Assembly (NCBI GenBank): GCA_005223075.1
Contig: NJBO01000003.1
Location: forward strand, 9,902-73,901
From: a candidate division TA06 bacterium B3_TA06
GTDB lineage: Bacteria > Hydrothermota > Tepidihabitantia > B3-TA06
DNA length: 64,000 nucleotides
Direction of reading: 5' to 3'
A model generated the notes under the pieces. That model was not told the DNA's origin and made no database searches. It saw only the letters and a list, made by a program, of their open reading frames with translations. The position numbers were made by a program, and so were the translations under genes. Each line of letters opens with the position of its first letter. The first letter of the stretch is position 1. Below, in pieces: positions 17,768-33,643 of the stretch.

Positions 17768-18454
17768 ATGCCCAAAAAGGCCGATAAAGAACTGGAAAAG
17801 TTTAAGAAAGTCGTTGGTCTCCTGCGTCAGCTATACAAAGACGACGGGATGAAAATCCTTGTTCACCCTGACGGCGTTGATCTTAAAATTGAAGAAGGTG
17901 CATTGGAAAAATATATTAAGGGAATGGATTTGAAACTAGAAGAGGTGAAAAGTTCGATAGGGGAAATCTCCAAATTTCTTAACGTTACGAGAGGTAAGTA
18001 CGAAGAAATAGAAATATCTGTAGACATACTTTTAGGCCCCCCTTCTGAGGAGGAAACCGAAAAAGCCCGAAAAGAAAGGGGAGAAATACTAGAAAAGAAG
18101 ATAGGCATACTCAAAGAAATCGAACCGGAATGGGCCATTCGCAGAAGATCAAAAGCAAAACGGCGGGCGAAGACTCCCGTAGTTACGGAAGTCAGGTGGG
18201 AGATAAACCGGAGGCTGGCGGATGAACGTAAATCGAAACGAGAGTCGACCCCCTTTGCGACTATTGAATTCCGTTACTTAGAACCGCCTTTTGGTCCTTC
18301 CGAAGACCCTTTAGCAAGGATTCTATCACCGATTTTTGGAATCCATAGAATTCAAAAAAGTCTCTCCTTAGGGTGTGACAAGGAAGATATCCGTTATTTG
18401 ATAAGCGAACTCAAAAAAATAGAAGATGAGTTAGCAACCGGAGAATCCAAGTGA
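17768..18454 (+). CDS. Hypothetical protein (Lys/Glu-rich), gene 1 of AT-rich three-gene operon
   Basis: 228-aa ORF with SD gaggaggatatgaATG; low GC relative to surroundings. Confidence 0.5.
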   Translation: MPKKADKELEKFKKVVGLLRQLYKDDGMKILVHPDGVDLKIEEGALEKYIKGMDLKLEEVKSSIGEISKFLNVTRGKYEEIEISVDILLGPPSEEETEKARKERGEILEKKIGILKEIEPEWAIRRRSKAKRRAKTPVVTEVRWEINRRLADERKSKRESTPFATIEFRYLEPPFGPSEDPLARILSPIFGIHRIQKSLSLGCDKEDIRYLISELKKIEDELATGESK

Positions 18455-19041
18455 GATATCTAGAGGAAAGAAACATTGAAGAAATTTTCCGCATCATGCG
18501 GGGCATGTTTAACTTGCATTGGGGCCATTTAAAAGAACATGCGACTGAAATAGAAAACATTAAAAAAACGGTAAGTGAATTCCTTAAGTTAACGCCAGAG
18601 CGTGCGGAATTTGTTCATCAGCCATCACGAGAACACAAGGAAATAAGGTTTTTAGTGATTCTGAATGATTTACGACTCGCAGCAGAAACTACGCTGGAGT
18701 CTTTTGATGATCTTGGGCAACGACTAGATTGTTTCTGTAGGGTGCAAGAGAAGGCAGATTCTCTCTATGAGGCAGTAAGACATCTTGACTTACGCAGGGA
18801 TGTCCGGAAACAGATCGCGCTCACCATCAGAGACGCTGTGAGAAATATCTATGCTGAGGATCTTGAAAAAGAAAATCTCCAAGCACTGCTTAAGGCCATA
18901 AAGGTTGCAGCAAAGGAAGAACTTCATCCCTCAGATCATATGCAGGTATTAGAATTCCTTTATGAGGGCGACCTAGATGCATACCCGCATCTTGATGAAG
19001 ACCTTTCCAAAATAATTGAAGAAGAAAACCAAAACGAGTGA
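18451..19041 (+). CDS. Hypothetical protein, gene 2 of AT-rich operon
   Basis: 196 aa; start overlaps upstream stop by 4 nt. Confidence 0.5.
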   Translation: MRYLEERNIEEIFRIMRGMFNLHWGHLKEHATEIENIKKTVSEFLKLTPERAEFVHQPSREHKEIRFLVILNDLRLAAETTLESFDDLGQRLDCFCRVQEKADSLYEAVRHLDLRRDVRKQIALTIRDAVRNIYAEDLEKENLQALLKAIKVAAKEELHPSDHMQVLEFLYEGDLDAYPHLDEDLSKIIEEENQNE

Positions 19042-19799
19042 AGCTTTTTCTCGACACAACTGTCCAAATGAACAGATACCTGGGTAAACAAAAGACCAAG
19101 AAAAAAATACGCAAAAAAATAAACCAAAGCACATCGTGTACTGCATCGAATTACGTTCTTGGTGAATACAGATGGACAATTGTCAAGGATGCGGCAATCT
19201 TTTTGAATTTGTTGAAAAGCTCTAATTCGATCAATGAAGCCGTCAATAGACTACCCTCTTATAATAGAAGAACGGAGAGAGTAACGAAAAAAATCCTTGG
19301 GCCAGTAATGGAGGAGTTACGGAACAGTGCCCCTAACCGACCGATGTCCGAATTAAAAGAAGCATTGCAGGAACGTGTAGAATATCTTTTAGATTGGTTG
19401 CTGGATTATTACTTTTGGGTAAGGATAGATAGGGATTCATTTGTAAAATCACCTGAATGCGTAGATGCACGGATTGAACCTTCTGCATCCGAAAAAATTT
19501 CATGTCCTCTTACAAAACCACCTCCTTGTGACATCGAGGATTTCTGGAGCCGTCACAAGGCGGAACTAAAGTCACTCGCCCATAACCTTCCTGATAGCCT
19601 GAGTAAATTTAAATCTCCAGCGGCATCCATCTTGAGAAATCCTGAAAAGGCGCATGGTAAGAAATGTCGCTACATCTTGGGGGATGCAATAATTGCCACA
19701 CAATGTCCTAAAGGTTATCGAGTCTTTACAACCAACACCGGGGATTTCCAACCAATCTGTCAGGCGGTCGGAAAGTCCACTCCAATTGGCCTTAAATAA
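19038..19799 (+). CDS. PIN-like nuclease domain protein (putative), gene 3 of AT-rich operon
   Basis: 253 aa; N-terminal MKLFLDTTV and C-terminal LGDAIIATQ...FTTNTGDFQPI resemble the first and last acidic motifs of PIN domains; long Cys-containing insertion; start overlaps upstream stop. Confidence 0.45.
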   Translation: MKLFLDTTVQMNRYLGKQKTKKKIRKKINQSTSCTASNYVLGEYRWTIVKDAAIFLNLLKSSNSINEAVNRLPSYNRRTERVTKKILGPVMEELRNSAPNRPMSELKEALQERVEYLLDWLLDYYFWVRIDRDSFVKSPECVDARIEPSASEKISCPLTKPPPCDIEDFWSRHKAELKSLAHNLPDSLSKFKSPAASILRNPEKAHGKKCRYILGDAIIATQCPKGYRVFTTNTGDFQPICQAVGKSTPIGLK

Positions 19800-19974: not shown

Positions 19975-21048
19975 GTGATGCATAAGAAACTTTTCATCCC
20001 AGGACCCACCGAGGTCCTGCCTGAGGTTCTAGAGGCTCAGACCAAACCCATGTTCGGGCACCGCATGAAGGAGGCATCCGAACTGGGAACATCGGTAATC
20101 AACAAGCTGAAAAAAGTACTGGAGACCGACCAGCAGGTGATCGTGTGGACCGCTTCGGGTTCCTTGATCATGGAGGCATCCATACGCAACAGCGTCAAGA
20201 AGGGCGTGCTCAACACTATCTGCGGGGCCTTTTCCGAGCGCTGGCACAAGATGGCCAAGGCCAACGGCTTGCCATGTGGTGCTATTGAAGTCGAATGGGG
20301 CAAGGCCATAACGCCGGAGATGGTGGATCAAGAACTGGCAACCGGCAAATACGACGTGCTGTGCCTTACCCATAACGAAACCTCCACCGGCGTAATGAAC
20401 CCAACCGATGCGATCGCGGACATGGTGCGTGAGCGCTATCCGGACGTTTTGATTCTGGTAGACGCCGTCTCCTCACTCACCGGTGCCAGGATCAACGTTG
20501 ACAAATACGACGTGGTTTTGACCTCTACCCAGAAATGTGTGGCACTTCCACCCGGCCTTTCCTTCTGCACCGTCTCCGACAGGTTCCTTGAGCGGGCCCA
20601 GACCATCGAGCACCGCGGCCACTACACCGACTTCCTACTCATGAAGAAGTACATAGACGAGCGAGGCGGACAGACACCATCCACCCCCAACCTTGCCCTC
20701 TACAACGCACTCGACTTCCAGCTCGATCGCATGCTTGAAGAAGGCATGGACAACCGTTACAAGCGTCACTCGGATATGGCCAACCGCGTGCGCTCCTGGG
20801 CAAAGGAGCACTTTGATCTTTTCCCTGAGCAAGGCTATGAGTCCGAGACCGTGACCGTTATCGCCAACACCAAGGGCATAAGTGTGGCCGATTTGAACAA
20901 GGCATTGGCTGAGCGCGGCATGGCCCTAGCCAACGGCTACGGTAAAAAGCTCAAGGAGAAGACCTTCCGCATCGCCCACATGGGTGATCTTCAGATGAAA
21001 GACATAGACGAGCTATTGGCCGCTATAGACGACATACTCGGCCACTAG
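19975..21048 (+). CDS. Class V aminotransferase (serine-glyoxylate or phosphoserine aminotransferase type)
   Basis: 357 aa; PLP-dependent class V pattern (VLILVDAVSSL, TSTQKCVALPPG); adjacent to serA-like gene. Confidence 0.8.
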   Translation: MMHKKLFIPGPTEVLPEVLEAQTKPMFGHRMKEASELGTSVINKLKKVLETDQQVIVWTASGSLIMEASIRNSVKKGVLNTICGAFSERWHKMAKANGLPCGAIEVEWGKAITPEMVDQELATGKYDVLCLTHNETSTGVMNPTDAIADMVRERYPDVLILVDAVSSLTGARINVDKYDVVLTSTQKCVALPPGLSFCTVSDRFLERAQTIEHRGHYTDFLLMKKYIDERGGQTPSTPNLALYNALDFQLDRMLEEGMDNRYKRHSDMANRVRSWAKEHFDLFPEQGYESETVTVIANTKGISVADLNKALAERGMALANGYGKKLKEKTFRIAHMGDLQMKDIDELLAAIDDILGH

Positions 21049-21057
21049 GAGGATGTA

Positions 21058-21957
21058 ATGAAGGTTTTAGTAAACGACGCCATCGCCCCCCAGGGCGTCC
21101 AGAAGCTGAAGGACGCAGGATTCGAGGTGGTGGTGGATCATCTCGAACCGGAGGATTTGAAAGCTCAGATCAAAGACTACGACGCCCTCATCGTGCGTTC
21201 GGCGACCAAGGTGCGCCGCGAGATCATCGAGGCCGCCGAGAACCTGAAGGTGATCGGTCGCGCCGGCGTTGGACTGGATAACGTGGACCGCGAGGCGGCC
21301 AAGGAGCGCGGCATTGCTGTCTACAACACCCCGGCAGCGACATCCATCTCGGTAGCTGAGCTTGCTCTGGGTATGATGCTTTCCGCGGCCCGGCACATCG
21401 CACAGGGCACGGTTAGCCTCAAGCAAGGCCGCTGGGACAAGAAGAAGTTCAAGGGTATTGAGCTTTACGGCAAGACACTGGGCATAATCGGCATGGGTCG
21501 CATCGGCTCCGAGCTGGCCAAGCGCGCCCGGGCCATGGGCATGAGTGTCTTCTTCTTCGACGCCGTAGTCTCCGAATCCGAGTTCGGCACCTACAAGGAG
21601 ATGGATGAGGTCCTGGCGGAGGCTGATTTCCTTTCCCTTCACCTGCCCCATAACGACAGCACCCATTACCTCATAAGCACCGATGCGTTTGCGAAGATGA
21701 AGGACGGAGCGATTCTTGTCAACGCTGCCCGCGGCGGTGTGGTTGATGAGGAGGCGCTGTATGAAGCGCTCACCTCCGGCAAGCTCAGAGCGGCCGCCGT
21801 AGACGTCTACGAGAGCGAACCTGTAACCGAGCACAAGCTCTTTAGTCTGGATAACGTGGTGCTCACCCCGCACGTGGGTGCCCAGGCCGCAGAAGGTCAG
21901 CAGCGCGCAGGCGTGCAGGTCGCAGAAAAGGTAATCGAGGCGCTCAAGGGGTCATAA
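21058..21957 (+). CDS. D-3-phosphoglycerate dehydrogenase-like 2-hydroxyacid dehydrogenase (no ACT domain)
   Basis: 299 aa; NAD-binding GIIGMGRIGSELAKRA and catalytic region; SerA-like. Confidence 0.8.
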   Translation: MKVLVNDAIAPQGVQKLKDAGFEVVVDHLEPEDLKAQIKDYDALIVRSATKVRREIIEAAENLKVIGRAGVGLDNVDREAAKERGIAVYNTPAATSISVAELALGMMLSAARHIAQGTVSLKQGRWDKKKFKGIELYGKTLGIIGMGRIGSELAKRARAMGMSVFFFDAVVSESEFGTYKEMDEVLAEADFLSLHLPHNDSTHYLISTDAFAKMKDGAILVNAARGGVVDEEALYEALTSGKLRAAAVDVYESEPVTEHKLFSLDNVVLTPHVGAQAAEGQQRAGVQVAEKVIEALKGS

Positions 21958-23247
21958 GTGGCAACCATACGACCGTTCAGAGGGCTTCGCTACAACCCGG
22001 AAGAGATAGCTGACCCCTCTCGTGTGATCACCCAGCCCTACGACAAGATAACGCCCCGGATGCAAGCGGAGTATTATGATCGGCACCCGCTGAACTATGT
22101 ACGCCTCATCTACGGACGCGAAGAAGACCGTTACCAGGAATCGGCGGATTTCTTCAACAAGTGGATGGAAGAGGGTCTCATCATCAAGGATGTCGAACCC
22201 GCACTCTACCCATATACCCAGACTTATAGGATTGAGGGTAATCCTGCCCCTATCACCCGCACCGGGTTCATCACCGCACTCAAGCTTCACCCTTACTCCG
22301 ACAGGGTGGTGCTTCCGCACGAGCGCACCCTGAAGGGGCCAAAACAGGATCGTTTCAAACTCTTTTCAAAGACACATAAGAACTACGAGCAGGTGTTCAT
22401 GCTCTACGCTGATTCCGACCGCAGGATCGAGAAGTTCTTTGAGCCTGCGATGGCCCAAAAGCCCCTGATGGAGGCGACGGACGATTATGATTGTATCCAC
22501 AGGGTTTGGCGGGTTTCTGATCCTGAGGTGATCGGCAAGGTTCAGGAGGTTCTTGCTCCCAAACCGGTAATGATCGCAGACGGTCACCACCGCTACGAGA
22601 CCGCGCTTGCACTCAAGGAGCATCTTGTCAAGGATCATCCCGATGTGCCTGACGCCTCGGCCTTCAACCACCGCATGGTGACACTGGTTAATCTGTTCGA
22701 TCCAGGACTGCTGGTGCTTCCTACCCATCGCTACGTGATAAAACTGAAAACCGACTTCGATACCGCCAAAGCGGAGATGGCAGAGTATTTCGAGATCACG
22801 CCGGTTGCCAAGGAAGAACTTGCGGTCAAGGTCAAGGAGAACGCGGATAAGCACGCGTTTGGCCTCTATCGTAAGGACGGTTCCTGGCTTCTGCTGCTCA
22901 AGGACGATGCCGTGATGGACGAGGTAATGCCCGCAGATCCGCCCCAGATCAAAGCGCTTGACGTATCTGTGCTGCACAACCTGGTGATCGAGAAGCTGTT
23001 GGATATCAGCAAGGAGGAGATCGAGTCATACATCCGCTACGAGCGCTACGTGGATAAAGCTTTCAGCCGTGTGGATTCCGGCGAGTTTGAGATATGCTTC
23101 CTCATGAACCCGACAAAGGTCGAGCAGGTTGAAGCGGTCTCGGCGGCCGGCGCCAGGATGCCGCAGAAGTCCACCGACTTCTACCCGAAGCTCGTTTCAG
23201 GTCTGGTGGCGTTTGACGTTTCTCCGGGCGAGGTTCTGCCCTGGTAG
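21958..23247 (+). CDS. DUF1015-family protein
   Basis: 429 aa; GTG start; N-terminal MATIRPFRGLRY resembles the conserved DUF1015 N-terminus (recalled, not searched). Confidence 0.55.
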   Translation: MATIRPFRGLRYNPEEIADPSRVITQPYDKITPRMQAEYYDRHPLNYVRLIYGREEDRYQESADFFNKWMEEGLIIKDVEPALYPYTQTYRIEGNPAPITRTGFITALKLHPYSDRVVLPHERTLKGPKQDRFKLFSKTHKNYEQVFMLYADSDRRIEKFFEPAMAQKPLMEATDDYDCIHRVWRVSDPEVIGKVQEVLAPKPVMIADGHHRYETALALKEHLVKDHPDVPDASAFNHRMVTLVNLFDPGLLVLPTHRYVIKLKTDFDTAKAEMAEYFEITPVAKEELAVKVKENADKHAFGLYRKDGSWLLLLKDDAVMDEVMPADPPQIKALDVSVLHNLVIEKLLDISKEEIESYIRYERYVDKAFSRVDSGEFEICFLMNPTKVEQVEAVSAAGARMPQKSTDFYPKLVSGLVAFDVSPGEVLPW

Positions 23248-23316
23248 CGGTGATAGCTTCAAGTTATTAAGAGTAGGGGCACGGCATGCCGTGCCCCTAC
23301 AATTTAGGAGGAAAGG

Positions 23317-26085
23317 ATGTCCCTGACGTTAGTTTTTGCGATACTTGCCGCACCCATAGATAGCCTCTGGCAGACTGAGTACGAGCACATACTTGAAGGG
23401 CTCCAGCTTATGAATCTTGAGGTTTCAGACCTGGGCTACGACAAGCTCTGGCGCGAAGACTCATTCAGGCTCGAGATCGTCAACGACCTCATGAACAACC
23501 CGCTGGACGTGCCTGACTACGTGCTTCTCTCAGGTAAAGAGATACGTGAGCTCTACCGGCCTTCCGACTACCTGAGGTTTACATGTCTGGAGCTTACCGG
23601 CAAGAGGTTCAGATCGGAGAAGATAAAAGCTGCAGATATCGAGGATGCGGTTAAAGAGGTGTTCGAATTGACCAGCCAGCATCTGGATAAGGCGTTTGAG
23701 GATTTAACCGAGGCGGAGCGCGACAGCCTCCTATACACCGCCCCTGCCTTGTGGTCTGACGAGGCCGACTCGTTAGAAAACGGCTACGCAGGCGCGCTGC
23801 ATAAAGAGTTCGGGATAGAGCGCGATACGAGTTACGGGTTGAAGCTGGTTGATCTGCTTCGCTTATCCCAGAAGGTGGATATCCGCGAGCTGCACGTTGC
23901 AGGGGCGAGTCTTGCTGATGGGGTGGAACAGATCATACCAATGGCTAAGGAGCTACTTGCGCAGGAGAACCCGCCACAGGTGCAGGTGGAGGGGGTTGAA
24001 GGAGTGGTCTACGCGGTCTACGATCTCCCCGATGGCCAGAAATGCGTTATCGGCGGACCGTGGCATAACACCTATACCGGTGATTTCGCGGTGATCATCG
24101 ATCTGGGCGGCAACGATGTCTACGAAGGACGGGCTGCAGGTGCGGTTGGCGAGCTGTGGACCGCGGTCAGCTTCGTGCTCGATCTTGCAGGAGACGACGT
24201 CTACCGCAACCGTACCAAGCTGGTTAACCAGGGTGCGGCGCTGTTCGGTGCGGCCTTATTATGGGATAAAGGCGGCAACGATTCCTACACAGGGTTCCAC
24301 ATCTCGCATGGTGCGGGTCTGTATGGGATCGGCATGTTGATCGACGAGGACGGAGAGGATTCATACAGGGCCGGGTTCTTCACCCAGGGGGCGGGCAACT
24401 TCGGATCAGGCGTTCTTGCCGATCGTGAAGGCGACGACACCTACCGCGCCTGGGACTGGACTCAAGGGTTAGGCGGCCCATGGGGATACGGGTTAATTGC
24501 CGACTACGAAGGCGACGATCTGTACTACGCTGGCGGGGTTCACATCCACCATCCCCTTACCCCTGACCAGTACCGCTCGTTCGCCCAGGGGTTCGGTTTC
24601 GGCTGGCGCGACGTGGCCTCCGGTGGGATAGGATTTTTATACGACCGTAAGGGCAACGATAAGTACATCTCAGAGATATACGCGCAGGCCACCTCCTACT
24701 GGTTCGCGTTAGGGATGCTTTTAGATGAACAGGGCAACGATTTGTACTCGGCGGCTCAGTACTCTCAAGGGTCAGGCATTCATTTATCGATAGGTGCGTT
24801 GATGGATCTGGAGGGCGACGATCACTACTTCTCGCGCTACGGTCCGTCCCAGGGTGAGGGGCACGATCTTGCGGTCGGCTGGCTTCTTGATGCCGACGGC
24901 GACGATGTGTATTACGCGTCAGGAGGTCAGGGGATCGGCCTGACCAACTCGGTAGGGATATTCGTGGACACAAGGGGTAACGACGACTACTGCTCCCGCG
25001 AGGGTCTAAGCCAGGGCGGGGCAAACTGGTCGCGAGGCACCGGGGGAGTGGGCATGTTTATCGACCTTCAGGGTAACGACCGCTACGCCGAGGAGGACAA
25101 GGGCGAAAATAACCACGTCTGGACCTCAGGCACCTTCGCCCTGGGTATGGACGTGGAGGCGGTCCAGCCGCGCAAGGAACCCTGGCAGGATACGGTTACC
25201 ACCTTCCCTGAGCTGGATACGTTAGAGACTGACTCGGCAAGGATGGCGAGGCTGTTCCACTACGCGTCGCTGTGGGAGGTGCGCGGCGACATCGGCAAGG
25301 TAAGGACAGCAAGAAGGATGCTGAAAGAGGATTACGCAGAGCAGGCGGTCTCATACATCTTCAACTACGAGTTCTGCACCTACAGCGGGCTGACGCTGCG
25401 GGCGATAGAGAAGCATTTTGCGGAGTTCAAGGACACCGCCGCCTACTATCTCTATCAAGGTCTTGAAGCAGACAACGACACCATCGTGCGCAACTCGATC
25501 TATCTCTTGGGTCAGCTGGAGATCGAGGGAGCAGCAGACACATTAATCAAAAAGCTTGAGGACAAACGCAACGACTCCCTGGCAGGCTCACTGGTCTCTG
25601 CGCTTGGGAAGTTAAAGGCAAATCAGGCGGTTCCTGCGATAGTCCACTACGCCGATCATCATAAGGAACGCATGAGGATTCTGGTGGCAGAGGCTTTCTC
25701 AAAGATAAAGGACGAAAGGGCCGTACCTGTCTTGATAGATGATCTTTCGGATCCCTACTTTACGGTCCGCGCCGCGGCGATGGCCGCTTTAGCCCAGATA
25801 GGTGAGGCGGCACTTGAACCCCTTGAGATTGAGTTGGACAAAGCACGCAAACCGGATTATCAGGCGACACTCCTGCGAGCACTGCGCAACGTCTATACGA
25901 AACTAGAGGACGAGGAGAAGACCTCAGACCTCAAGGAGCGCTTGGCTGAGCTTGCGCGGCCCTATCTTGATGCCTCCTACCCCGCACTTCGCGAACAGGC
26001 GCAAAAGCTCTTAGACGAGGTGGAAGGCCGCAGCATACTCTCTCCTACCGAGCTGTTCGGCTATCCTGAGCAAGCTTGGGATTGA
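23317..26085 (+). CDS. Large repeat protein: ~12 G(N/D)DxY repeats plus C-terminal HEAT/PBS-lyase-like repeats
   Basis: 922 aa; repeats GGNDVYEG, AGDDVYRN, GGNDSYTG, DGEDSYRAG, EGDDTYRAW, EGDDLYYAG, KGNDKYISE, QGNDLYSAA, EGDDHYFSR, DGDDVYYAS, RGNDDYCSR, QGNDRYAEE; immediately upstream of the paralog array. Confidence 0.55.
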   Translation: MSLTLVFAILAAPIDSLWQTEYEHILEGLQLMNLEVSDLGYDKLWREDSFRLEIVNDLMNNPLDVPDYVLLSGKEIRELYRPSDYLRFTCLELTGKRFRSEKIKAADIEDAVKEVFELTSQHLDKAFEDLTEAERDSLLYTAPALWSDEADSLENGYAGALHKEFGIERDTSYGLKLVDLLRLSQKVDIRELHVAGASLADGVEQIIPMAKELLAQENPPQVQVEGVEGVVYAVYDLPDGQKCVIGGPWHNTYTGDFAVIIDLGGNDVYEGRAAGAVGELWTAVSFVLDLAGDDVYRNRTKLVNQGAALFGAALLWDKGGNDSYTGFHISHGAGLYGIGMLIDEDGEDSYRAGFFTQGAGNFGSGVLADREGDDTYRAWDWTQGLGGPWGYGLIADYEGDDLYYAGGVHIHHPLTPDQYRSFAQGFGFGWRDVASGGIGFLYDRKGNDKYISEIYAQATSYWFALGMLLDEQGNDLYSAAQYSQGSGIHLSIGALMDLEGDDHYFSRYGPSQGEGHDLAVGWLLDADGDDVYYASGGQGIGLTNSVGIFVDTRGNDDYCSREGLSQGGANWSRGTGGVGMFIDLQGNDRYAEEDKGENNHVWTSGTFALGMDVEAVQPRKEPWQDTVTTFPELDTLETDSARMARLFHYASLWEVRGDIGKVRTARRMLKEDYAEQAVSYIFNYEFCTYSGLTLRAIEKHFAEFKDTAAYYLYQGLEADNDTIVRNSIYLLGQLEIEGAADTLIKKLEDKRNDSLAGSLVSALGKLKANQAVPAIVHYADHHKERMRILVAEAFSKIKDERAVPVLIDDLSDPYFTVRAAAMAALAQIGEAALEPLEIELDKARKPDYQATLLRALRNVYTKLEDEEKTSDLKERLAELARPYLDASYPALREQAQKLLDEVEGRSILSPTELFGYPEQAWD

Positions 26086-26295
26086 CGGAGCAATCTAGCA
26101 GAAAGTAAGGGCGCCTTTAGGGCATCTAAGACTCCAAAAACGACGAGTGGGAAGGGGCTACCCCAACCAAATTCTTGATATCATTTTTTTGATTTATAAC
26201 AAAAGCTCTTGACAATCATAAAATTTTGTGCATCATTAGGGATAGAAGGAAGATTTATGTCCTTCTTTCAGAAACCTTCAACCCAAGGAGGAGAT

Positions 26296-26745
26296 ATGCA
26301 TAACTCCAAAAAACTCATACTCGCCGTCCTGGCAGTTATCCTGCTGCTGGGAGCCACTCCGGCGTTCGCTCAGCTGGGCGGAACCTGGGAGGGCATAGGT
26401 AGGGGCGAAGCTTACCCGCCCTGTCACCCTCCTATACACCCCTGGCAGACGTGGAAGGGCGAGATCCCGGCCACCCAAGATGTCTTCACCGGCGAATGGT
26501 GGGATGCGGACGGCAATCACGGCACATTCAAGGGCGTGGTGGAGTTCTCACCCATTCCTGAGATAGCATACGCTGAAGGCGAATGGACATGGTACGACCC
26601 CACAGGCCACTCTCAGCAACCAATAGTCGGCGGCAAGTTCAAGATGACGTTCTACATCCTGGAAAAAAGATGCGAAGGCACCTGGACATCCATCTGGCCC
26701 TCACCCAGCGATCACGGCACCATGAAAGGCTGGAAGGTAGATTAA
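26296..26745 (+). CDS. Array paralog 1: small Sec-secreted Trp/Cys-rich protein, subtype A
   Basis: 150 aa; start placed at ATG 26296 (SD aaggagg); signal MHNSKKLILAVLAVILLLGATPAFA; PPCHPPIHPWQTWKGEIP ... GTMKGWKVD. Confidence 0.7.
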   Translation: MHNSKKLILAVLAVILLLGATPAFAQLGGTWEGIGRGEAYPPCHPPIHPWQTWKGEIPATQDVFTGEWWDADGNHGTFKGVVEFSPIPEIAYAEGEWTWYDPTGHSQQPIVGGKFKMTFYILEKRCEGTWTSIWPSPSDHGTMKGWKVD

Positions 26746-26809
26746 CCTTCCATGAAACTCGGAGGGGCAGATTTCTGCCCCTCCTCACAGATCACAAAAG
26801 GAGTAAGAG

Positions 26810-27253
26810 ATGAGTAACTTCAAAAAACTCACGATCGCCGCGCTCGCGGTGATCTTTCTGATCGGAGCAACGCCTATTGCCGCCGAGCTCGACGGCATCT
26901 GGGAAGGCCATGGCGATGGAACCTGGCGGCCACCAAGCGGCATAGTACCTGTTCACCCCTGGCAAACCTGGAAAGGCACCGTCGAGAACGGACGCTTTTA
27001 CGGGGAGTGGTACGATAGCACAGGCGCCCACGGCAGATTCCAAGGCGTCATACCATCCTTAACCCAAGAGGTAGCATACTGCGAAGGCTTCTGGACGTGG
27101 GTAGATGAAGGTTGCGACCCACCACGGGAGATCACCGTAGGTCCGTTCGAGATGGATTTTCACTACGTCATTGAAACATGCAGGGGCGCATGGTGGAGTG
27201 AACTTACCGCCGTCCCGCAAGGACACATGTGGGGCCGAAGGACAGGCCCGTAG
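26810..27253 (+). CDS. Array paralog 2, subtype B-like
   Basis: 147 aa; signal MSNFKKLTIAALAVIFLIGATPIAA; HPWQTWKGTVENG ... CEGFWTWVD. Confidence 0.7.
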   Translation: MSNFKKLTIAALAVIFLIGATPIAAELDGIWEGHGDGTWRPPSGIVPVHPWQTWKGTVENGRFYGEWYDSTGAHGRFQGVIPSLTQEVAYCEGFWTWVDEGCDPPREITVGPFEMDFHYVIETCRGAWWSELTAVPQGHMWGRRTGP

Positions 27254-27326
27254 GGCATAATAGAAACCAAGCAGGGGGCGGGGTTACTCGCCCCCTCATA
27301 AACCTAAAACCTCAAAGGAGGAACAA

Positions 27327-27773
27327 ATGAGCAACTCCAAAAAACTCATAATCGCCCTCGCCGTGATCTTCTTGGTTGGGGCAACACCTGCCTTGGCCGA
27401 TCTCGATGGTATTTGGGAAGGCTATGGTAATGGCAGCTACTACTTACCTGACGGTAGCATCATCTACCCATGGCAAAGCTGGAACGGTACTGTCGAGAAT
27501 GGAGTCTTCAGCGGCTCCTGGGAAGATGACGAAGGCAACTCCGGCGGTTTCACAGGAGGCATCACATGCTTCTTCACTACTGTCCCACCCTCATATACGT
27601 TTGCCGGCTGCGAAGGAACCTGGACGTGGATTGACCCCAGCGGCTTAGAACCCATTGAACTAGGGAGCTTCTGGATGACGTTCAACGTAGACCTTGACAC
27701 CTGCTGGGGCGAATGGTTGCCTTACACTAATGCTCAGGGTGGAACCATGTGGGGCTGGAGGATAGGAGACTGA
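27327..27773 (+). CDS. Array paralog 3, subtype B
   Basis: 148 aa; YPWQSWNGTVENG ... CEGTWTWID ... GGTMWGWRIGD. Confidence 0.7.
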   Translation: MSNSKKLIIALAVIFLVGATPALADLDGIWEGYGNGSYYLPDGSIIYPWQSWNGTVENGVFSGSWEDDEGNSGGFTGGITCFFTTVPPSYTFAGCEGTWTWIDPSGLEPIELGSFWMTFNVDLDTCWGEWLPYTNAQGGTMWGWRIGD

Positions 27774-27846
27774 GGCATAATAGAAACCAACCAGGGGGCG
27801 GGGTTACTCGCCCCCTCATAAACCTTAAACCAAAAGGAGGAACAAA

Positions 27847-28302
27847 ATGAGTAACTCCAAAAAACTCCTCATCGCCCTGGCTGTGATACTTGCAGTCGGG
27901 GCAACGCCCCTCCTCGCACAACTTGAAGGACCGTGGGCAGGCAATGGCGAAGGAAGCTGCAAGACACCCACCGGAATCACTATCTACCCTTGGCAGGAGT
28001 GGGACGGCTTCGTGGAGAATGGAGCCTTCGACGGCAGTTGGTGGGACGGCGACAACGGCGGCAACTTTCACGGCGACATAATATCCATCAGCACCCCAGT
28101 CCCACCCGCGGAACCACATGACGTAGCATACTGTGAAGGCACCTGGACATGGGTAAATGACGAGGGGGAGGAGATATCTATGGGCCAGTTCTGGATGAAC
28201 TTTGACCTCCTCTACGGAACATGCGAAGGTGAATGGTGGCCTTGCAATCGCCCTGAGCCTTGGGGCCCGGGAATCATGTGGGGCTGGAGGATAGGAGACT
28301 GA
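27847..28302 (+). CDS. Array paralog 4, subtype B
   Basis: 151 aa; YPWQEWDGFVENG ... CEGTWTWVND ... IMWGWRIGD. Confidence 0.7.
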   Translation: MSNSKKLLIALAVILAVGATPLLAQLEGPWAGNGEGSCKTPTGITIYPWQEWDGFVENGAFDGSWWDGDNGGNFHGDIISISTPVPPAEPHDVAYCEGTWTWVNDEGEEISMGQFWMNFDLLYGTCEGEWWPCNRPEPWGPGIMWGWRIGD

Positions 28303-28375
28303 GGCATAATAGAAACCAAGCAGGGGGCGGGGTTACTCGCCCCCTCATAAACCTTAAACCTCAAAGGAGGAACAA

Positions 28376-28813
28376 ATGAGCACCCCAAAAAAAATCCTGC
28401 TAACCGCTTTGGCGGTGATCCTTTTACTAGGGGCCACGCCTATTGCCGCCCAGATCGCAGGAGTCTGGGAGGGCACCGGTAAAGGCGCAGCTTACCCGCC
28501 CTGCCACCTACCTATATATCCATGGCAGAAATGGATAGGCGAGATACCAAACTCTGAAGACGTCTTTTTCGGCGAGTGGAAAGACACCCTTGACAACCAC
28601 GGCAGATTCGAAGGCAAGCCTGCACCTTACTCCACTCCTGATGCGAAGGTGTTCAAAGGCTACTGGACCTGGGAAACCCCCGAAGGGATATTCAAAGGCG
28701 GCGAATTCACGATGACCTTTTACTTCTTGGAAGGCGAATGCAAGGGCACCTGGACATCCATCTGGCCTTCGCCGGGCAAGCTGGGAACCATGAGAGGCTG
28801 GAAGGTGCACTGA
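28376..28813 (+). CDS. Array paralog 5, subtype A
   Basis: 145 aa; PPCHLPIYPWQKWIGEIP ... GTMRGWKVH. Confidence 0.7.
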   Translation: MSTPKKILLTALAVILLLGATPIAAQIAGVWEGTGKGAAYPPCHLPIYPWQKWIGEIPNSEDVFFGEWKDTLDNHGRFEGKPAPYSTPDAKVFKGYWTWETPEGIFKGGEFTMTFYFLEGECKGTWTSIWPSPGKLGTMRGWKVH

Positions 28814-28880
28814 AGCATACAACCAACCAGGGGGCGGCCCTCCGCCCCCTATAAACCTTAAACCTCAAAGGAGGAACAAA

Positions 28881-29318
28881 ATGAGTAACCCCAAAAAACT
28901 CCTCATCGCCGCGCTTGCGGTGATCTTCCTGCTCGGCGCAACGCCCCTTGCCGCCGAGCTAGACGGGTTCTGGGCAGGAACTGGCACTGGCTGCTGCCAT
29001 CCAGAGTCCACCACCATCACCATATACCCCTGGCAGACATGGGACGGCTTCGTCGTGAACCACGAGATCTTTCACGGTGAGTGGCAAGATAGCTTAGGAC
29101 ACCAAGGCACCTTCGAAGGAAGAGTCGTCCAGATAGACTCAACCTATGCGGTTTTCGAAGGCACGTGGAGATGGACTGACCCCACCATACTCATAATCCC
29201 TCCTGTTATAGGCGAGTTCCATATGGACTTCGATCTTCTCACCCGCACCTGCCTGGGCGAATGGTTCTACCATGAGGACTACGGAACCATGCAAGGACAA
29301 AAACTGGAGACAAAATAA
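28881..29318 (+). CDS. Array paralog 6, divergent B-like
   Basis: 145 aa; GCCHPESTTITIYPWQTWDGFVVN ... GTMQGQKLETK. Confidence 0.7.
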   Translation: MSNPKKLLIAALAVIFLLGATPLAAELDGFWAGTGTGCCHPESTTITIYPWQTWDGFVVNHEIFHGEWQDSLGHQGTFEGRVVQIDSTYAVFEGTWRWTDPTILIIPPVIGEFHMDFDLLTRTCLGEWFYHEDYGTMQGQKLETK

Positions 29319-29393
29319 GAAAGAACAGACAAACCAACCAGGGGGCGGGGTTACTCGCCCCCTCATAAACCTTAAACCTCAAAGGAGGAACAA

Positions 29394-29834
29394 ATGAGCA
29401 CCCCAAAAAAAATCCTGCTAACCGGTTTGGCGGTAATCCTTTTACTAGGGGCCACGCCGCTTGCCGCCCAGATCGCAGGAAGATGGGAGGGTACTGGTAC
29501 AGGCGAAGCTTACCCGCCCTGCCACCCGCCTATACACCCCTGGCAGATCTGGATGGGCGAGATCCCGCTCACTCAGGATGTTTTCACAGGCGAATGGTGT
29601 GACGCGGACTGCAATCACGGCACCTTCAAGGGCGAGATAGCCCCTTTCTCAACTCCAGAGGAAGCATACTGTGAAGGTTATTGGACGTGGGATGATCCTT
29701 CCAGCCCGTCCATCATTGTAGGCCATTTCAAGATGACGTTCTACATCCTGGAAGGAATATGCGAAGGCACCTGGACATCCATCTGGCCATCGCCCAGCGG
29801 TCCCGGAACCATGAAAGGCTGGAAGATAGACTGA
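29394..29834 (+). CDS. Array paralog 7, subtype A
   Basis: 146 aa; PPCHPPIHPWQIWMGEIP ... GTMKGWKID; 5' end nearly identical at nucleotide level to paralogs 5 and 12. Confidence 0.7.
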   Translation: MSTPKKILLTGLAVILLLGATPLAAQIAGRWEGTGTGEAYPPCHPPIHPWQIWMGEIPLTQDVFTGEWCDADCNHGTFKGEIAPFSTPEEAYCEGYWTWDDPSSPSIIVGHFKMTFYILEGICEGTWTSIWPSPSGPGTMKGWKID

Positions 29835-29907
29835 GGTATACCTCGACAGACCATCAGGGGGCGGCCCTCCGCCCCCTTACAAACCTTAAACCAAAAGGAG
29901 GAACAAA

Positions 29908-30342
29908 ATGAGTAACTCCAAAAAACTCCTCATCGCCGCGCTTGCGGTGATCTTCCTCGCAGGGGCTACGCCTCTCGCCGCCCAGCTCGCAGGAGTCTGG
30001 GCAGGCACGGGCGAAGGCTGCTGCAGCCCTCCCGGAACTACCATCTACCCTTGGCAGACGTGGAAGGGTGAAATACCCAACAGCCAAGACGTGTTTTCCG
30101 GCAAGTGGTGGGACGCAGATAGCAACCGGGGCACCTTCCACGGAAAGATAATAATCTCCAGTGTCACCGAAGCATACTGCGAAGGTATCTGGAACTTAGA
30201 TGACCCTTCAGGGGCTTCAATCATTGGAGGTGATTTCAAGATGACATTCTACATCCTGGAAGGAACATGCGAAGGCACCTGGATATCCATCTGGCCCACC
30301 GCCTTACCCGCAACCATGAGAGGCTGGAAGGTAGAACCGTAA
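29908..30342 (+). CDS. Array paralog 8, A/B mosaic
   Basis: 144 aa; B-type signal peptide with A-type body (YPWQTWKGEIPNSQDVFSGKWWD ... TMRGWKVEP). Confidence 0.7.
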   Translation: MSNSKKLLIAALAVIFLAGATPLAAQLAGVWAGTGEGCCSPPGTTIYPWQTWKGEIPNSQDVFSGKWWDADSNRGTFHGKIIISSVTEAYCEGIWNLDDPSGASIIGGDFKMTFYILEGTCEGTWISIWPTALPATMRGWKVEP

Positions 30343-30406
30343 AGTCACAACCTAGGGGGCGGGCTTGTGCCCCCTCATAAACCTCAAACCTCAAAGGAGG
30401 AACAAA

Positions 30407-30856
30407 ATGCACAACTATAAAAAACTCATACTCGCCGCCCTGGCAGTTATCCTGCTGCTGGGAGCCACTCCGGCGTTCGCTCAGCTGGCCGGAACCTGGG
30501 AGGGCACTGGTAGGGGCGAAGCTTACCCGCCCTGCCACCCTCCTATACACCCCTGGCAAAACTGGATAGGCGAGATCCCGAACTCTCAGGATGTGTTTTT
30601 CGGCGAATGGTGGGACTCGGACTGCAATCACGGCACCTTCAAGGGCGAAATAGCCCCTTTCTCCACTCCAGAGGAAGTATACTGTGAAGGCGAATGGACA
30701 TGGTACGACCCCACAGGCTCCTCTCACCAACCAATAGTCGGCGGCAAGTTCAAGATGACGTTCTACATCCTGGAAGGAAGATGCGAAGGCACCTGGACCT
30801 CCATATGGCCATCGCCCAGCGAGCACGGAACCATGAGAGGCAGGAAGGTACACTGA
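30407..30856 (+). CDS. Array paralog 9, subtype A
   Basis: 149 aa; start placed at ATG 30407 after SD aaaggagg; ends GTMRGRKVH. Confidence 0.7.
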   Translation: MHNYKKLILAALAVILLLGATPAFAQLAGTWEGTGRGEAYPPCHPPIHPWQNWIGEIPNSQDVFFGEWWDSDCNHGTFKGEIAPFSTPEEVYCEGEWTWYDPTGSSHQPIVGGKFKMTFYILEGRCEGTWTSIWPSPSEHGTMRGRKVH

Positions 30857-30925
30857 ACCTTAACGCCGAGCGGGGACGGGTTTCCATCCCCGCTCGGGAT
30901 AAACCTTAAACCAAAAGGAGAAGCA

Positions 30926-31354
30926 ATGAGTAACTCCAAAAAGCTAATGCTCACCGCCTTGGCGGTGATCTTTCTGATCGGAGCGACGCCTCTCTTCGCC
31001 GATCTCGACGGCATCTGGGAAGGCTACGGCGAAGGAAGCTGCGAGACACCCGCTGGAACCATCATCTACCCCTGGCAAACCTGGAACGGAACCGTTGATG
31101 AATACGGGTACTTCTCCGGCGAGTGGGAAGACTCGGACGGCAATCAAGGCACCTTCGAAGGCTGCATGGCGTCCCTGAACCCCCCAGTCTGCCCGGGGGT
31201 ATGGACATGGAGAGACGATTCGAGTCTCGAACCCATCGAGATGGGCCTATTCCAGATGGTCTTTTACGAGGTCCAAGGAACATGCAACGGCGAATGGTGG
31301 CCGTACTCTGGCGCTCAGGGTGGAACCATGTGGGGCTGGAGTATAGGAGACTAA
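30926..31354 (+). CDS. Array paralog 10, subtype B
   Basis: 142 aa; YPWQTWNGTVDEYG ... GGTMWGWSIGD. Confidence 0.7.
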   Translation: MSNSKKLMLTALAVIFLIGATPLFADLDGIWEGYGEGSCETPAGTIIYPWQTWNGTVDEYGYFSGEWEDSDGNQGTFEGCMASLNPPVCPGVWTWRDDSSLEPIEMGLFQMVFYEVQGTCNGEWWPYSGAQGGTMWGWSIGD

Positions 31355-31425
31355 GGCATAATAGAAACCAACCAGGGGGCGGCCATCCGCCCCCACTTAA
31401 ACCCTAAACCTCAAAGGAGGAACAA

Positions 31426-31875
31426 ATGAGTAACCCCAAAAAAATCCTCATCGCCGCGCTTGCGGTGATCTTCCTCGCAGGGGCGACGCCGCTTCTTGCC
31501 CAACTCAACGGTACATGGGCGGGCGAAGGAGAAGGCGTTTGCTCTCCGCCTCCCCCTATACCTACCGACTTCCCCATCTATGCTTGGCAGAACTGGAAAG
31601 GTCTGGTTGAGGATAATGAAGTCTTCTACGGCGAGTGGTACGATAACCGCTGTAACAACGGCACCTTCAAAGGCGAGATCGTATTCGTAACTCCCGAGGA
31701 TGCATACTGCGAAGGCGAGTGGCACTGGTTCGACGAACGCTACGACCCTCCGCGTGTCTACTACATGGGACCGTTTTCGATGAAGTTCAAGCTGGAAGAA
31801 GCAATATGCTACGGTGAATGGCGGACTTACTACAGTAATGAGAGCGGAACCATGAAAGGAGAAAAGATAGACTGA
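31426..31875 (+). CDS. Array paralog 11, divergent
   Basis: 149 aa; FPIYAWQNWKGLVEDNEVFYGEWYD ... GTMKGEKID. Confidence 0.7.
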   Translation: MSNPKKILIAALAVIFLAGATPLLAQLNGTWAGEGEGVCSPPPPIPTDFPIYAWQNWKGLVEDNEVFYGEWYDNRCNNGTFKGEIVFVTPEDAYCEGEWHWFDERYDPPRVYYMGPFSMKFKLEEAICYGEWRTYYSNESGTMKGEKID

Positions 31876-31953
31876 GGATATACCGGGAAACCGGCTAACC
31901 CAGGGGGCGGGCTTCCGCCCCCTGATAAACCCTAAACCTCAAAGGAGGAACAA

Positions 31954-32400
31954 ATGAGCACCCCAAAAAAAATCCTGCTAACAGGTTTGGCGGTGATCCT
32001 TTTACTAGGGGCCACGCCGCTTGCCGCCCAGATCGCAGGCACATGGGAAGGCACCGGAACCAGCTGCTGCTGTCCACACCCGGGCACGATCATCTACCCC
32101 TGGCAGGCGTGGGTAGGTGAGATCCCCAACTCCCAGGACGTCTTCACCGGCGAGTGGAAAGACAGCCTCGACAACCGCGGCACATTCAAGGGCGAAATCC
32201 TCTGGATCAGCACCACCGTCGCCATCGCCAGAGGTTCCTGGTACTGGTTCGATCCTACCGGTCCCAGTCACGAACCGGTCTACGGAGGCGACTTCGAGAT
32301 GAAGTTCTACGTCTACGAGAGGGAGTGCACCGGCACCTGGACATCCATCTGGCTATCGCCCAGCGAACACGGAACCATGAGAGGCAGAAAGGTACACTAA
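31954..32400 (+). CDS. Array paralog 12, subtype A
   Basis: 148 aa; CCCPHPGTIIYPWQAWVGEIP ... GTMRGRKVH. Confidence 0.7.
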   Translation: MSTPKKILLTGLAVILLLGATPLAAQIAGTWEGTGTSCCCPHPGTIIYPWQAWVGEIPNSQDVFTGEWKDSLDNRGTFKGEILWISTTVAIARGSWYWFDPTGPSHEPVYGGDFEMKFYVYERECTGTWTSIWLSPSEHGTMRGRKVH

Positions 32401-32466
32401 ACCTAAAGCCGAGGGGGGCGCAAACCCGTCCCCCTCGGGATGAACCTTAAACCAAAAGGAGAAGCA

Positions 32467-32922
32467 ATGAGTAACTCCAAAAAGCTAATGCTCACCGCCT
32501 TGGCGGTGATCTTTCTGATCGGAGCAACGCCGCTCTTCGCAGAACTCGACGGCATCTGGGAAGGCTACGGCGAAGGAAGCTGCGAGACACCCGCTGGAAT
32601 CATCATCTACCCCTGGCAAACCTGGAACGGCAGCCTGGAGTCATGGCTCTTCACCGGCCACTGGCAAGACTTGGACGGCAGCTCCGGCGGCTTCCAGGGG
32701 GCCGTCATATCCCTCGCCAAATCCGTTGAACCGCCTTACCATACGGTTGCTCACTGCGAAGGAACCTGGACGTGGATGGATCCCAGCGGCTTAGAACCCC
32801 TCGAAATGGGTCCCTTCAATATGGAGTTCAATCTGGACATTGACACCTGCTGGGGCAACTGGTACTCCTATTCTAGCCCCGGAATTGGCGGAACCATGTG
32901 GGGCTGGAGGATAGGAGACTGA
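32467..32922 (+). CDS. Array paralog 13, subtype B
   Basis: 151 aa; start placed at ATG 32467; first ~45 codons and upstream intergenic region nearly identical to paralog 10. Confidence 0.7.
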   Translation: MSNSKKLMLTALAVIFLIGATPLFAELDGIWEGYGEGSCETPAGIIIYPWQTWNGSLESWLFTGHWQDLDGSSGGFQGAVISLAKSVEPPYHTVAHCEGTWTWMDPSGLEPLEMGPFNMEFNLDIDTCWGNWYSYSSPGIGGTMWGWRIGD

Positions 32923-33118: not shown

Positions 33119-33643
33119 ATGAAGACGGTTGTTGTTTACTATTCCCGCTACGGTAACTCGCGGGTGGCGGCGCGCTTGATAGCAAAACATCTTCAAGCAC
33201 CCGTGCACCGCATAGAGGTCAAGCGCCACAGAGGAGTGGTTAGGTCTACGTTCTCCGCCCTTTTCGGGCGTCGTCCTGAGATCAAAACCATCCCTCTACA
33301 ACCCCAGGACTGGGACCTGATGGTAATTGTTGTTCCGATATGGTCAGGCAGGCCGGCAACACCTCTTAAAACCTTCCTTGCCGAGACACGACTTGCCGAA
33401 AAGCAGGTGGCTGTGTTCTTTTCATACACCAAAACCGATCCCCACAAACGCCCTTCGCGCTGGATGCAAAAGGTGTTGGGGCACTTCGGTGCGCGGCTCG
33501 TTGCCGTAGGCGGGTACAACATCTCCCTTAAGAATCACACCGTACTCAAGCAGCGGATCTGGGACTTCCTCGCCCAGCTCCCACCCCAAGCCATCCCATC
33601 GACTCCCTCCAAGAAATCCGCCAGGCGCAGCCCTCAAAAATAG
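33119..33643 (+). CDS. Flavodoxin-like fold protein (putative)
   Basis: 174 aa; N-terminus MKTVVVYYSRYGNS resembles flavodoxin-type phosphate-binding loop. Confidence 0.45.
   Translation: MKTVVVYYSRYGNSRVAARLIAKHLQAPVHRIEVKRHRGVVRSTFSALFGRRPEIKTIPLQPQDWDLMVIVVPIWSGRPATPLKTFLAETRLAEKQVAVFFSYTKTDPHKRPSRWMQKVLGHFGARLVAVGGYNISLKNHTVLKQRIWDFLAQLPPQAIPSTPSKKSARRSPQK

Follow-up and report, generated by a model that had tools for sequence, protein, structure and literature searches.

Among the described systems closest to the protein analyzed here are the calcium-binding β-solenoids of the RTX type. The RTX consensus is GGxGxDxUx, and that of the Marinomonas primoryensis protein MpAFP is xGTGNDxuxuGGxuxGxux (PMC3492233). 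The classical RTX β-roll (PF00353) has two RTX-like turns per 18 residues. Its G-(N/D)-D-x-aromatic core is found where a turn leads into a strand, and its acidic and glycine residues line up from one stacked turn to the next, the geometry by which RTX proteins bind Ca2+. Region IV of MpAFP (MpIBP; PDB 3p4g) is an extracytoplasmic right-handed solenoid of ~12–13 turns, with one turn of the G-x-G-N-D-x-u type per 19-residue coil and a Thr/Asx ice-binding array on its other face, and it forms part of a giant adhesin that is exported by type I secretion.

At positions 23317–26085 on the forward strand of the window (the whole stretch of DNA analyzed, 64,000 nucleotides) lies a complete ORF of 922 aa plus stop, which forms one uninterrupted frame starting at the first ATG past a stop. 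The product is 100% identical to CEE36_02860 of candidate division TA06 bacterium B3_TA06, and it has full-length homologues down to 38% identity, the best 120 of which share 38–88% full-length identity with the query. No DNA-level tandem repeats were found in the ORF, and no paper on the protein was found in the literature on TA06/WOR-3 with HEAT repeat. The structure prediction that an earlier, sequence-only reading of this DNA had proposed as a check was carried out with AlphaFold2 (pLDDT 78, pTM 0.73), and the resulting model has three parts: helices at residues 19–214, strands at 231–611 and helices again at 631–902. We give a probability of about 0.55 to the reading that this is a Sec-exported three-module envelope protein, made up of a helical N-domain, a Ca2+-type solenoid and a HEAT module, that is independent of the gene array downstream of it. 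The favored role is that of an envelope ligand-binding or ligand-processing module.

The central part of the protein is built from a unit with the consensus G-x-G-h-L-h-D-x-x-G-[ND]-D-x-Y-x-[AS]. Motifs of the form G-(N/D/E)-D-x-Y run from G265 to Y590 (24109–25086, forward strand), and the twelve G(N/D)DxY repeats described by the sequence-only reading are indeed present as 11 strict G[ND]DxY motifs and one GEDSY, compared with a chance expectation of 0.09 motifs and a maximum of 2 in 2000 composition-preserving shuffles. The spacing and extent given there need to be corrected: the measured period is 26–28 aa rather than ~20–22 aa, with the exception of one 47-aa gap (which has a conserved insertion inside) and one 32-aa gap, and the repeat region covers about 345 residues (about 255–600) rather than ~300. 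That it could not assign the repeat to a named family is borne out by the searches: residues 1–625 have no match in Pfam (searched with the query, 40 homologues, and separate N-domain and solenoid segments), in NCBIfam or among PDB sequences (searched with phmmer and two profiles). The HemolysinCabind model (PF00353) likewise gave no match to the query or to 12 solenoid segments even at E up to 10. Two thirds of the protein thus match no sequence in Pfam, NCBIfam or the PDB, yet the family runs to more than 4000 sequence clusters (4128 at 50% identity).

The repeats are predicted to fold into a right-handed β-solenoid over residues 230–611 (24004–25149, forward strand), with 12 canonical turns of ~27 aa and degenerate end turns, the extra turn at the N-terminal end reading GGxGDNxY in the family consensus. 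Positions D(−3), G0, D+2 and Y+4 are 95–100% conserved, both in a logo of 478 units and in 122 diverse family members, and across the family each turn keeps this D/G/D/Y ladder with little or no variation. The model shows only two regular strands per solenoid turn; the solenoid alone, modeled from 12 sequences, gave a poor result (pLDDT 56) that was set aside. The top structural match is the Ca2+-bound ice-binding solenoid of the Marinomonas RTX adhesin (3p4g), to which the predicted solenoid is similar in fold, and further good matches are the adhesins and autotransporter passengers SRRP, HMW1, UpaB and TibA. Foldseek against the PDB returned HEAT/armadillo matches only and nothing on the other domains.

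The likeness to the known solenoids extends to the turn. As in the classical β-roll, the G-(N/D)-D-x-aromatic core is placed where turn passes into strand and the acidic and glycine residues are stacked in register, and as in region IV of MpAFP the solenoid is right-handed, has a comparable number of turns, carries one RTX-like turn per coil and is probably extracytoplasmic. The coil, however, is 27 residues long, as opposed to 19 in MpAFP, and holds its single RTX-like turn where the classical proteins have two per 18 residues. D-x stands in place of the two glycines that open the nonapeptide, and the turn reads xxG(N/D)DxY as against xGTGNDxu. Of the 19-residue MpAFP consensus our logo shares G-(N/D)-D-x-Y and nothing else, with no match at the level of sequence. 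Unlike MpAFP region IV, the solenoid is not within a giant adhesin, the family has an N-terminal signal peptide instead of type I secretion, and the other face bears a conserved His/Asp/Arg/Gln cluster. A C-terminal secretion signal of the classical RTX kind is absent, the C-terminus being HEAT, and neither the host phyla nor the genomic surroundings are those of the classical RTX proteins. From the resemblance of both motif and fold we infer that the D-x-x-G-(N/D)-D ladder binds Ca2+. Characterization of the protein would bring a new domain family into the Ca2+ β-solenoids, together with a new coil geometry of 27 residues and one RTX-like turn.

Conservation is not confined to the ladder. The polar and aromatic residues Q424, R431, Q457, Y461, W462, Y482, Q484, H489, H516, D517, N544 and R573 (24586–25035, forward strand) are located on the third-side loop of turns 6–11, toward the C-terminal end of the solenoid, and are at least 93% identical among 122 family members with pairwise identities of <60%. 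The AlphaFold2 confidence is <50 in the loops bearing these residues, and their clustering in space would follow from the repeat register. Taken as a set, they likely mark a candidate ligand-binding or catalytic face.

The C-terminal part was described by the sequence-only reading as HEAT/PBS-lyase-like repeats, and Pfam agrees: the stretch at 25537–25827 (forward strand) exceeds the thresholds for both HEAT_2 (PF13646, residues 741–826; E 1.1e-12, 48.5 bits vs. a cutoff of 27.7) and HEAT_PBS (PF03130, residues 817–837; E 7.4e-8, 32.6 bits vs. a cutoff of 20.9), with matches in all 40 aligned homologues as well. The module as a whole spans residues 630–902 (25204–26022, forward strand); it opens with a linker helix bearing the family motif ASLWEV...KV..AR and continues as a HEAT-repeat α-solenoid of paired antiparallel helices (pLDDT 77–94), with matches to alphaRep and CpcE. 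Unlike the PBS-lyase-type HEAT proteins, it is probably exported and is coupled to the solenoid, either by fusion or as the next gene. In all four of the split forms checked, a HEAT gene of ~330 aa is the next one downstream, overlapping or within 175 bp, and is homologous to the C-terminus of the 922-aa protein, linker motif included (E 8e-18). Among 351 family proteins sorted by size, 207 extend at the C-terminus by 200 aa or more (the size of HEAT-fused proteins, as judged by length and not by individual scans), another 96 are short, and 15 carry a long extension at the N-terminus; those of this last kind that were scanned have an N-terminal PDZ domain. In this third form the PDZ domain takes the place of HEAT. 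The favored role of the HEAT α-solenoid is that of a binding module.

The short hydrophobic N-terminus, MSLTLVFAILAAPIDSL (23317–23367, forward strand), is a probable Sec signal peptide, although a weak one in the protein's own clade. Distant homologues have classical signal peptides, e.g., MRAFVTWLISLLLLTGTAQAQ, and in the split forms the two halves each bear a signal peptide or lipobox, from which it seems probable that the 922-aa protein is exported by Sec as well. Export is less certain for this copy than for the distant homologues because its n-region is without positive charge. The signal is followed by an all-helical domain at residues ~18–214 (23368–23958, forward strand; AlphaFold2 helices H19–H214, pLDDT mostly 82–97), which is kept in the split and PDZ-type forms and whose profile found no match in Pfam or the PDB. 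By sequence, this domain is specific to the solenoid family and belongs to no named family.

Relatives are encoded in 410 GTDB species genomes, with a spread that takes in WOR-3/Stahlbacteria, Cloacimonadota, Latescibacterota, Zixiibacteriota, Calditrichota, Eisenbacteria and some Planctomycetota MAGs. Across 83 loci no conserved partner besides HEAT was found, with no neighbor family common to more than 13 of them and none indicating a pathway; the best candidates, each in one subclade, are PDZ (13 loci), a histidine kinase (13), peptidase M6 (7), a metallophosphoesterase with CBM9 (7) and VIT1 (5). The family is one conserved across several mostly uncultured phyla, in which a solenoid is paired with a protein-binding module and which probably serves an envelope function particular to the lineages that carry it.

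The mechanism that we propose would begin with Sec export of the protein to the envelope. There the solenoid would form a rigid right-handed rod of ~12 turns, each of 27 residues with one RTX-like D-x-x-G-(N/D)-D-x-Y, and Ca2+ bound by the ladder along one edge of the rod would restrict its folding or stiffening to the space outside the cytoplasm. The N-domain and solenoid would be the ancient core, with an accessory binding module that varies between HEAT (fused or as the next gene) and N-terminal PDZ. The nearly invariant His, Asp, Arg, Gln, Tyr and Trp loop of turns 6–11 would be the working surface, which may bind, and possibly process, an envelope polymer or protein. The ligand may be a protein, as HEAT and PDZ indicate, or a glycan, for which the Arg/His/Asp/Gln/Trp/Tyr cluster and Ca2+ would be fitting too. 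A more far-reaching version, which we put forward tentatively and think rather doubtful as a whole, is that the N-domain and 27-residue-repeat solenoid constitute an undescribed ancient exported family in which the His/His/Asp/Arg/Arg/Gln/Tyr/Trp face is a new Ca2+-dependent active site that serves to build the envelope or to process polymers, with HEAT or PDZ as interchangeable recruiters of substrate.

Other functions have to be weighed against this. Catalysis by β-helix lyases is usually Ca2+-dependent, and the solenoid could be a glycan enzyme of the β-helix type (a lyase, hydrolase or epimerase) acting on envelope or environmental polysaccharide, with Ca2+ and the invariant cluster as active site and HEAT or PDZ as auxiliaries. 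Such an enzyme might show polar and aromatic residues that hardly vary and that cluster on one face, as seen here, and the strong sequence conservation across phyla suits an enzyme more than an adhesin. We nevertheless regard this as unlikely: the lack of any Pfam match in residues 1–625 extends to the Beta_helix, glycan lyase and hydrolase families of Pfam, there is no sequence-family match to the pectate-lyase-like β-helix enzymes or phage tailspike depolymerases, neither their catalytic signatures nor the Beta_helix model PF13229 was found in the protein, the 83 loci show no glycan-related gene as a consistent neighbor, and the accessory HEAT and PDZ modules typically bind proteins or peptides. 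That the protein is a cell-surface adhesin, or binds ice or mineral, is suggested by the structural matches to the Marinomonas ice-binding region and to SRRP, HMW1, UpaB and TibA, but seems very improbable given a signal that is N-terminal and of the Sec kind, not C-terminal and of type I, the absence of anchoring or Ig-like extender domains, adjoining genes of housekeeping type, and a length and sequence so strongly conserved among the best 120 homologues, unlike those of fast-evolving adhesins. Ice binding is implausible for a lineage described from hydrothermal sediments, and an ice-binding adhesin was rejected on export route, conservation and habitat. The name of the PBS-lyase repeat might also suggest a bilin lyase or NblB-type HEAT protein, and there are weak NCBIfam matches to NblB, CpcE, CpcF and CpeY in residues 713–842 as well as a PDB match to CpcE (E 1e-4). 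These matches span generic HEAT repeats only and score 15–29 bits vs. NCBIfam equivalogue cutoffs of 220–600 bits, so far below that this assignment, hardly credible for a probably exported protein of a lineage described as fermentative, from hydrothermal sediments, was rejected; the protein is not an equivalogue of CpcE/F or NblB.

The remaining alternative concerns the array of 13 paralogous genes (26296–32922, forward strand) for small secreted proteins of ~145 aa, with signal peptides and invariant W/G/C columns. The sequence-only reading considered co-function possible because the first paralogue lies on the same strand after only ~210 bp, and this geometry holds with the start at ATG 26296 (after AGGAGG); the start listed for that gene, TTG 26209, is probably wrong. 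The two could work together, with the 922-aa protein as, for instance, receptor, anchor, chaperone or processing factor, and besides their adjacency this would be consistent with an orthologue directly upstream at every array locus for which upstream sequence exists, namely 7 genome loci and 5 of 5 metagenome loci, with export of both products (probable for the 922-aa copy) and with HEAT as a protein-binding module. When the proposed check of co-occurrence was run, using an HMM on fetched loci and one metagenome scan, homologues of the 922-aa protein proved to be widespread without the array, the outcome named beforehand as refuting the link: relatives occur in the 410 species noted above, and the array is present in 7 of 68 independent loci having at least 2 kb downstream and absent from 61. 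A word-indexed search with one array protein returned 5 clusters, too small a number for judging how the array is distributed. Copy number among relatives ranges from 0 to 15, with presence patchy on the tree. Locus L038 keeps the order of 922-aa orthologue, flavodoxin-like gene and AIM24 with no array copy in a 155-bp gap, while its sister is a genome with 11 copies; similarly, L011 (15 copies) is sister to L009 (none). At L008 two opposite-strand genes intervene between orthologue and array. The conserved synteny block (aminotransferase, 2-hydroxyacid dehydrogenase, DUF1015, 922-aa gene, array, flavodoxin-like gene) accounts fully for the adjacency.

Co-function is thus not supported, because the array is present in so few loci, a syntenic relative is without it and a promoter-like site precedes it, and we judge it improbable. 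Within the array-bearing clade the array may depend one-way on the 922-aa protein. Under our preferred reading of an independent envelope protein, the array would be transcribed separately, and the comparison of loci describes it as a patchy, lineage-restricted neighbor with its own probable promoter and not a required partner; it is not explained by the 922-aa gene and merits separate study. No terminator-like site was found after the 922-aa ORF. The 210-bp gap holds a sigma-70-type promoter-like site, TTGACA-16-CATCAT (26209–26236, forward strand), which is conserved across Stahlbacteria loci and is a perfect TTGACA-16-TATAAT at the equivalent place in loci L001 (10000–10027) and L011 (12198–12225).

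The gene at window positions 23317-26085 (+) is a single open frame of 922 codons plus stop, and its product is 100% identical to the database entry CEE36_02860, a hypothetical protein of candidate division TA06 bacterium B3_TA06. The twelve G(N/D)DxY repeats described in the sequence-only reading are present, with eleven strict G[ND]DxY motifs and one GEDSY found by a regular-expression scan (starts at residues 265, 292, 320, 346, 372, 399, 446, 473, 500, 528, 554 and 586), and since 2000 shuffles of the same protein give a mean of 0.09 and a maximum of 2, the repeat is real. The spacing of 20-22 residues given there has to be corrected to 26-28 residues, with exceptional gaps of 47 and 32. 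No tandem repeats are detectable in the target at the DNA level, which indicates that the repeats are old. When 40 full-length homologues (38-85% identity to the target) are aligned end to end, every turn shows D(-3), G(0), D(+2) and Y(+4) with little or no variation, and the consensus drawn from 478 units reads G-x-G-h-L-h-D-x-x-G-[N/D]-D-x-Y-x-[A/S].

An AlphaFold2 model based on this alignment (pLDDT 78, pTM 0.73) predicts helices at residues 19-214, a beta-solenoid at 231-611 and an alpha-solenoid at 631-902, with confidence above 90 over the first six solenoid turns and under 50 where later turns extend into long third-side loops. Each solenoid repeat is modeled with two strands, the first ending at D(-3) and the second beginning at D(+2). 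The target motif D-x-x-G-(N/D)-D-x-Y corresponds to positions 4-8 of the classical RTX nonapeptide GGxGxDxUx (PMC3492233), with D-x standing where the nonapeptide has its two leading glycines. This match suggests that every 27-residue coil bears one RTX-like turn and that the stack of 12 turns is a probable Ca2+ ladder; Ca2+ binding by the solenoid seems plausible. Because the Pfam RTX model does not match the target and sequence searches link the solenoid region to no solved structure, we treat the ladder as inferred. The N-terminal two thirds of the protein return zero matches in Pfam, NCBIfam or PDB sequence searches, in keeping with the earlier remark that the central repeat could not be assigned to a named family. 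The fold class, a Ca2+-type right-handed beta-solenoid, is already known; what is new is the 27-residue coil with only one putative RTX-like turn, together with a helical N-domain of its own, an obligatory pairing with HEAT or PDZ, and the predicted Sec export.

The HEAT-like repeats previously noted at the C-terminus are borne out by scores above the Pfam thresholds for both HEAT_2 (48.5 bits vs. 27.7) and HEAT_PBS (32.6 vs. 20.9), and consensus-designed alphaRep proteins also match there with E as low as 4e-24. The C-terminal third is an ordinary HEAT_2/HEAT_PBS member.

A profile search with the solenoid recovers 4128 clusters (50% identity), of which 2154 have E <1e-30; when each GTDB species is represented by a single genome, 410 species carry a relative. 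By source label these are WOR-3, Stahlbacteria, Edwardsbacteria, Cloacimonadota, Latescibacterota, Hydrothermus, Eisenbacteria, Zixiibacteriota and Calditrichaeota, as well as MAGs designated Planctomycetota and Deltaproteobacteria; the loci related to the target are labeled Stahlbacteria or WOR-3. Among 351 family proteins, 207 continue for 200 residues or more beyond the solenoid on the C-terminal side, 96 stop directly after it, and 15 are instead extended by a long N-terminal stretch. In all four short forms whose context was examined, each from a different assembly, a HEAT gene of ~330 residues comes next after the solenoid gene, either overlapping it by 4 bp or following within 175 bp. 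One of these aligns to target residues 637-830 (E 8e-18), taking in the non-generic linker motif ASLW(E/Q)V...K(V/I)..AR. The separate and fused HEAT forms are related by gene fusion or fission, which shows that the solenoid has HEAT as its obligate partner. Those N-terminally extended forms that were examined carry a PDZ at residues ~77-183, preceding the N-helical domain and solenoid, and lack HEAT; the accessory module thus swaps between two kinds of protein/peptide binder. In one WOR-3 subclade (L005, 7073-12853, and six loci like it) the target orthologue ends a tight same-strand run of a 198-aa protein without assigned family, a PDZ protein and an M6 (InhA-like) metallopeptidase; together with the PDZ fused N-terminally elsewhere in the family, this run hints at a protein-processing theme.

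The N-terminus of the target is short and hydrophobic (MSLTLVFAILAAP...), and classical signal peptides open the more distant homologues. Each of the two products of the split forms has a signal peptide or lipobox, and the solenoid and HEAT modules would therefore both work outside the cytoplasm. Over 122 members sharing <60% identity, the non-ladder residues conserved at 93% or more are Q424, G425, G429, R431, Q457, Y461, W462, Y482, Q484, G485, H489, H516, D517, N544, R573, D612 and D625. The majority occupy the equivalent loop in consecutive turns 6-11, and the repeat register would place them next to one another on a single face, which is the leading candidate for the working surface of the protein.

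We propose that the protein is exported by Sec, that its solenoid would gain or stiffen its fold as Ca2+ binds along the D-x-x-G-(N/D)-D ladder, and that the helical N-domain would cap it. The polar and aromatic conserved face of turns 6-11 may bind, and perhaps process, an envelope ligand, with HEAT (PDZ in other members) as a second binding surface, and the protein would act without the downstream array. To this six-element reading as a whole we give a probability of roughly 0.55; within it, the protein architecture, the link to HEAT and the independence of the array have good support. An unlikely alternative is a specific glycan-active beta-helix enzyme, with which the fold class and the invariant residues (Arg/His/Asp/Gln/Trp/Tyr) would agree, although a family match is absent. 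The best structural match, the Ca2+-bound solenoid region of the Marinomonas primoryensis RTX adhesin MpAFP (published repeat consensus xGTGNDxuxuGGxuxGxux; PMC3492233), would favor an adhesin or ice binder, but the way the protein is exported, its strong conservation and a habitat in hydrothermal sediment all run contrary to this, and we regard it as very improbable. A bilin lyase is ruled out by the NCBIfam cutoffs, which the target does not reach, and its likelihood is close to negligible.

That the target is a partner of the array, thirteen tandem paralogues of ~145 aa each at 26296-32922 (+), was raised as a possibility from their proximity, and the gap of 210 bp does hold when the first array gene starts at ATG 26296 behind AGGAGG. 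An HMM built on the paralogues of the window (13 sequences) and run over all collected loci finds the array in 7 of 68 independent loci that extend 2 kb or more past the target (2, 3, 3, 4, 6, 11 and 15 copies), and homologues are widespread without it, the very outcome named beforehand as refuting the proposed co-function. The array is distributed patchily among relatives. In L038, a syntenic locus where the array is absent, the flavodoxin-like gene and AIM24 come 155 bp after the target; a neighbor-joining tree of the shared region places L038 as sister to L001 (11 copies) and L009 (none) as sister to L011 (15 copies). Two opposite-strand genes separate target and array in L008. A strong sigma-70-type promoter in the gap is conserved among relatives (window 26209-26236; L001 10000-10027; L011 12198-12225), with a perfect TTGACA-16-TATAAT in the divergent genomes L001 and L011, whose gaps otherwise do not align. 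Target orthologues at 58%, 48% and 40% identity have unrelated gene contexts, and any one neighbor family is common to at most 13 of 83 loci. On the other side, wherever a metagenome array locus includes upstream sequence (five of five), an orthologue of the target immediately precedes the array; this reflects conserved synteny within a narrow clade, the order class-V aminotransferase, 2-hydroxyacid dehydrogenase, DUF1015, target, array and flavodoxin-like gene being kept in 7/7 array loci. The array is best read as a neighbor of the target and not a partner; a functional link is unsupported and we hold it to be improbable, though array proteins may conceivably use the target protein.

Every array paralogue carries a signal peptide together with Trp, Gly and Cys columns that do not vary, and those scanned have no Pfam or NCBIfam match. 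Relatives occur in L001, L006, L007, L008, L011, L020, L024 and L088-L095, and the copy number of 0-15 among close relatives indicates that the locus grows and shrinks fast. Window-type genomes have a conserved ~60-nt leader with an ATG (26249) between the promoter and the array Shine-Dalgarno. The mechanically listed first array ORF (26209-26745) starts at a TTG within the promoter-like site, and the ATG following AGGAGG is likely the real start.

Immediately upstream of the target, the class-V aminotransferase, D-2-hydroxyacid dehydrogenase and DUF1015 genes (19975-23247, +) form a conserved same-strand block in the Stahlbacteria clade, which resembles a trio of the serine-pathway type, DUF1015 being its possible third member. 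An Eco57I-like N6-methyltransferase/restriction gene (~1145 aa) lies between DUF1015 and the target in L001 (3671-7105) and at the matching position of L008, and is absent at this position in the window, where a 70-bp gap (23248-23316) is found. Further upstream, three tightly packed consecutive ORFs of 228, 196 and 253 aa (17768-19799, +), with 4-bp overlaps between successive ORFs, match nothing significantly in Pfam or NCBIfam. At its far end the array is flanked by the flavodoxin-like gene (33119-33643, +) and an AIM24-family gene (33719-34381, -). A 205-aa antisense ORF (30236-30853, -) overlapping two array genes is most likely a chance ORF within GC-rich coding sequence.
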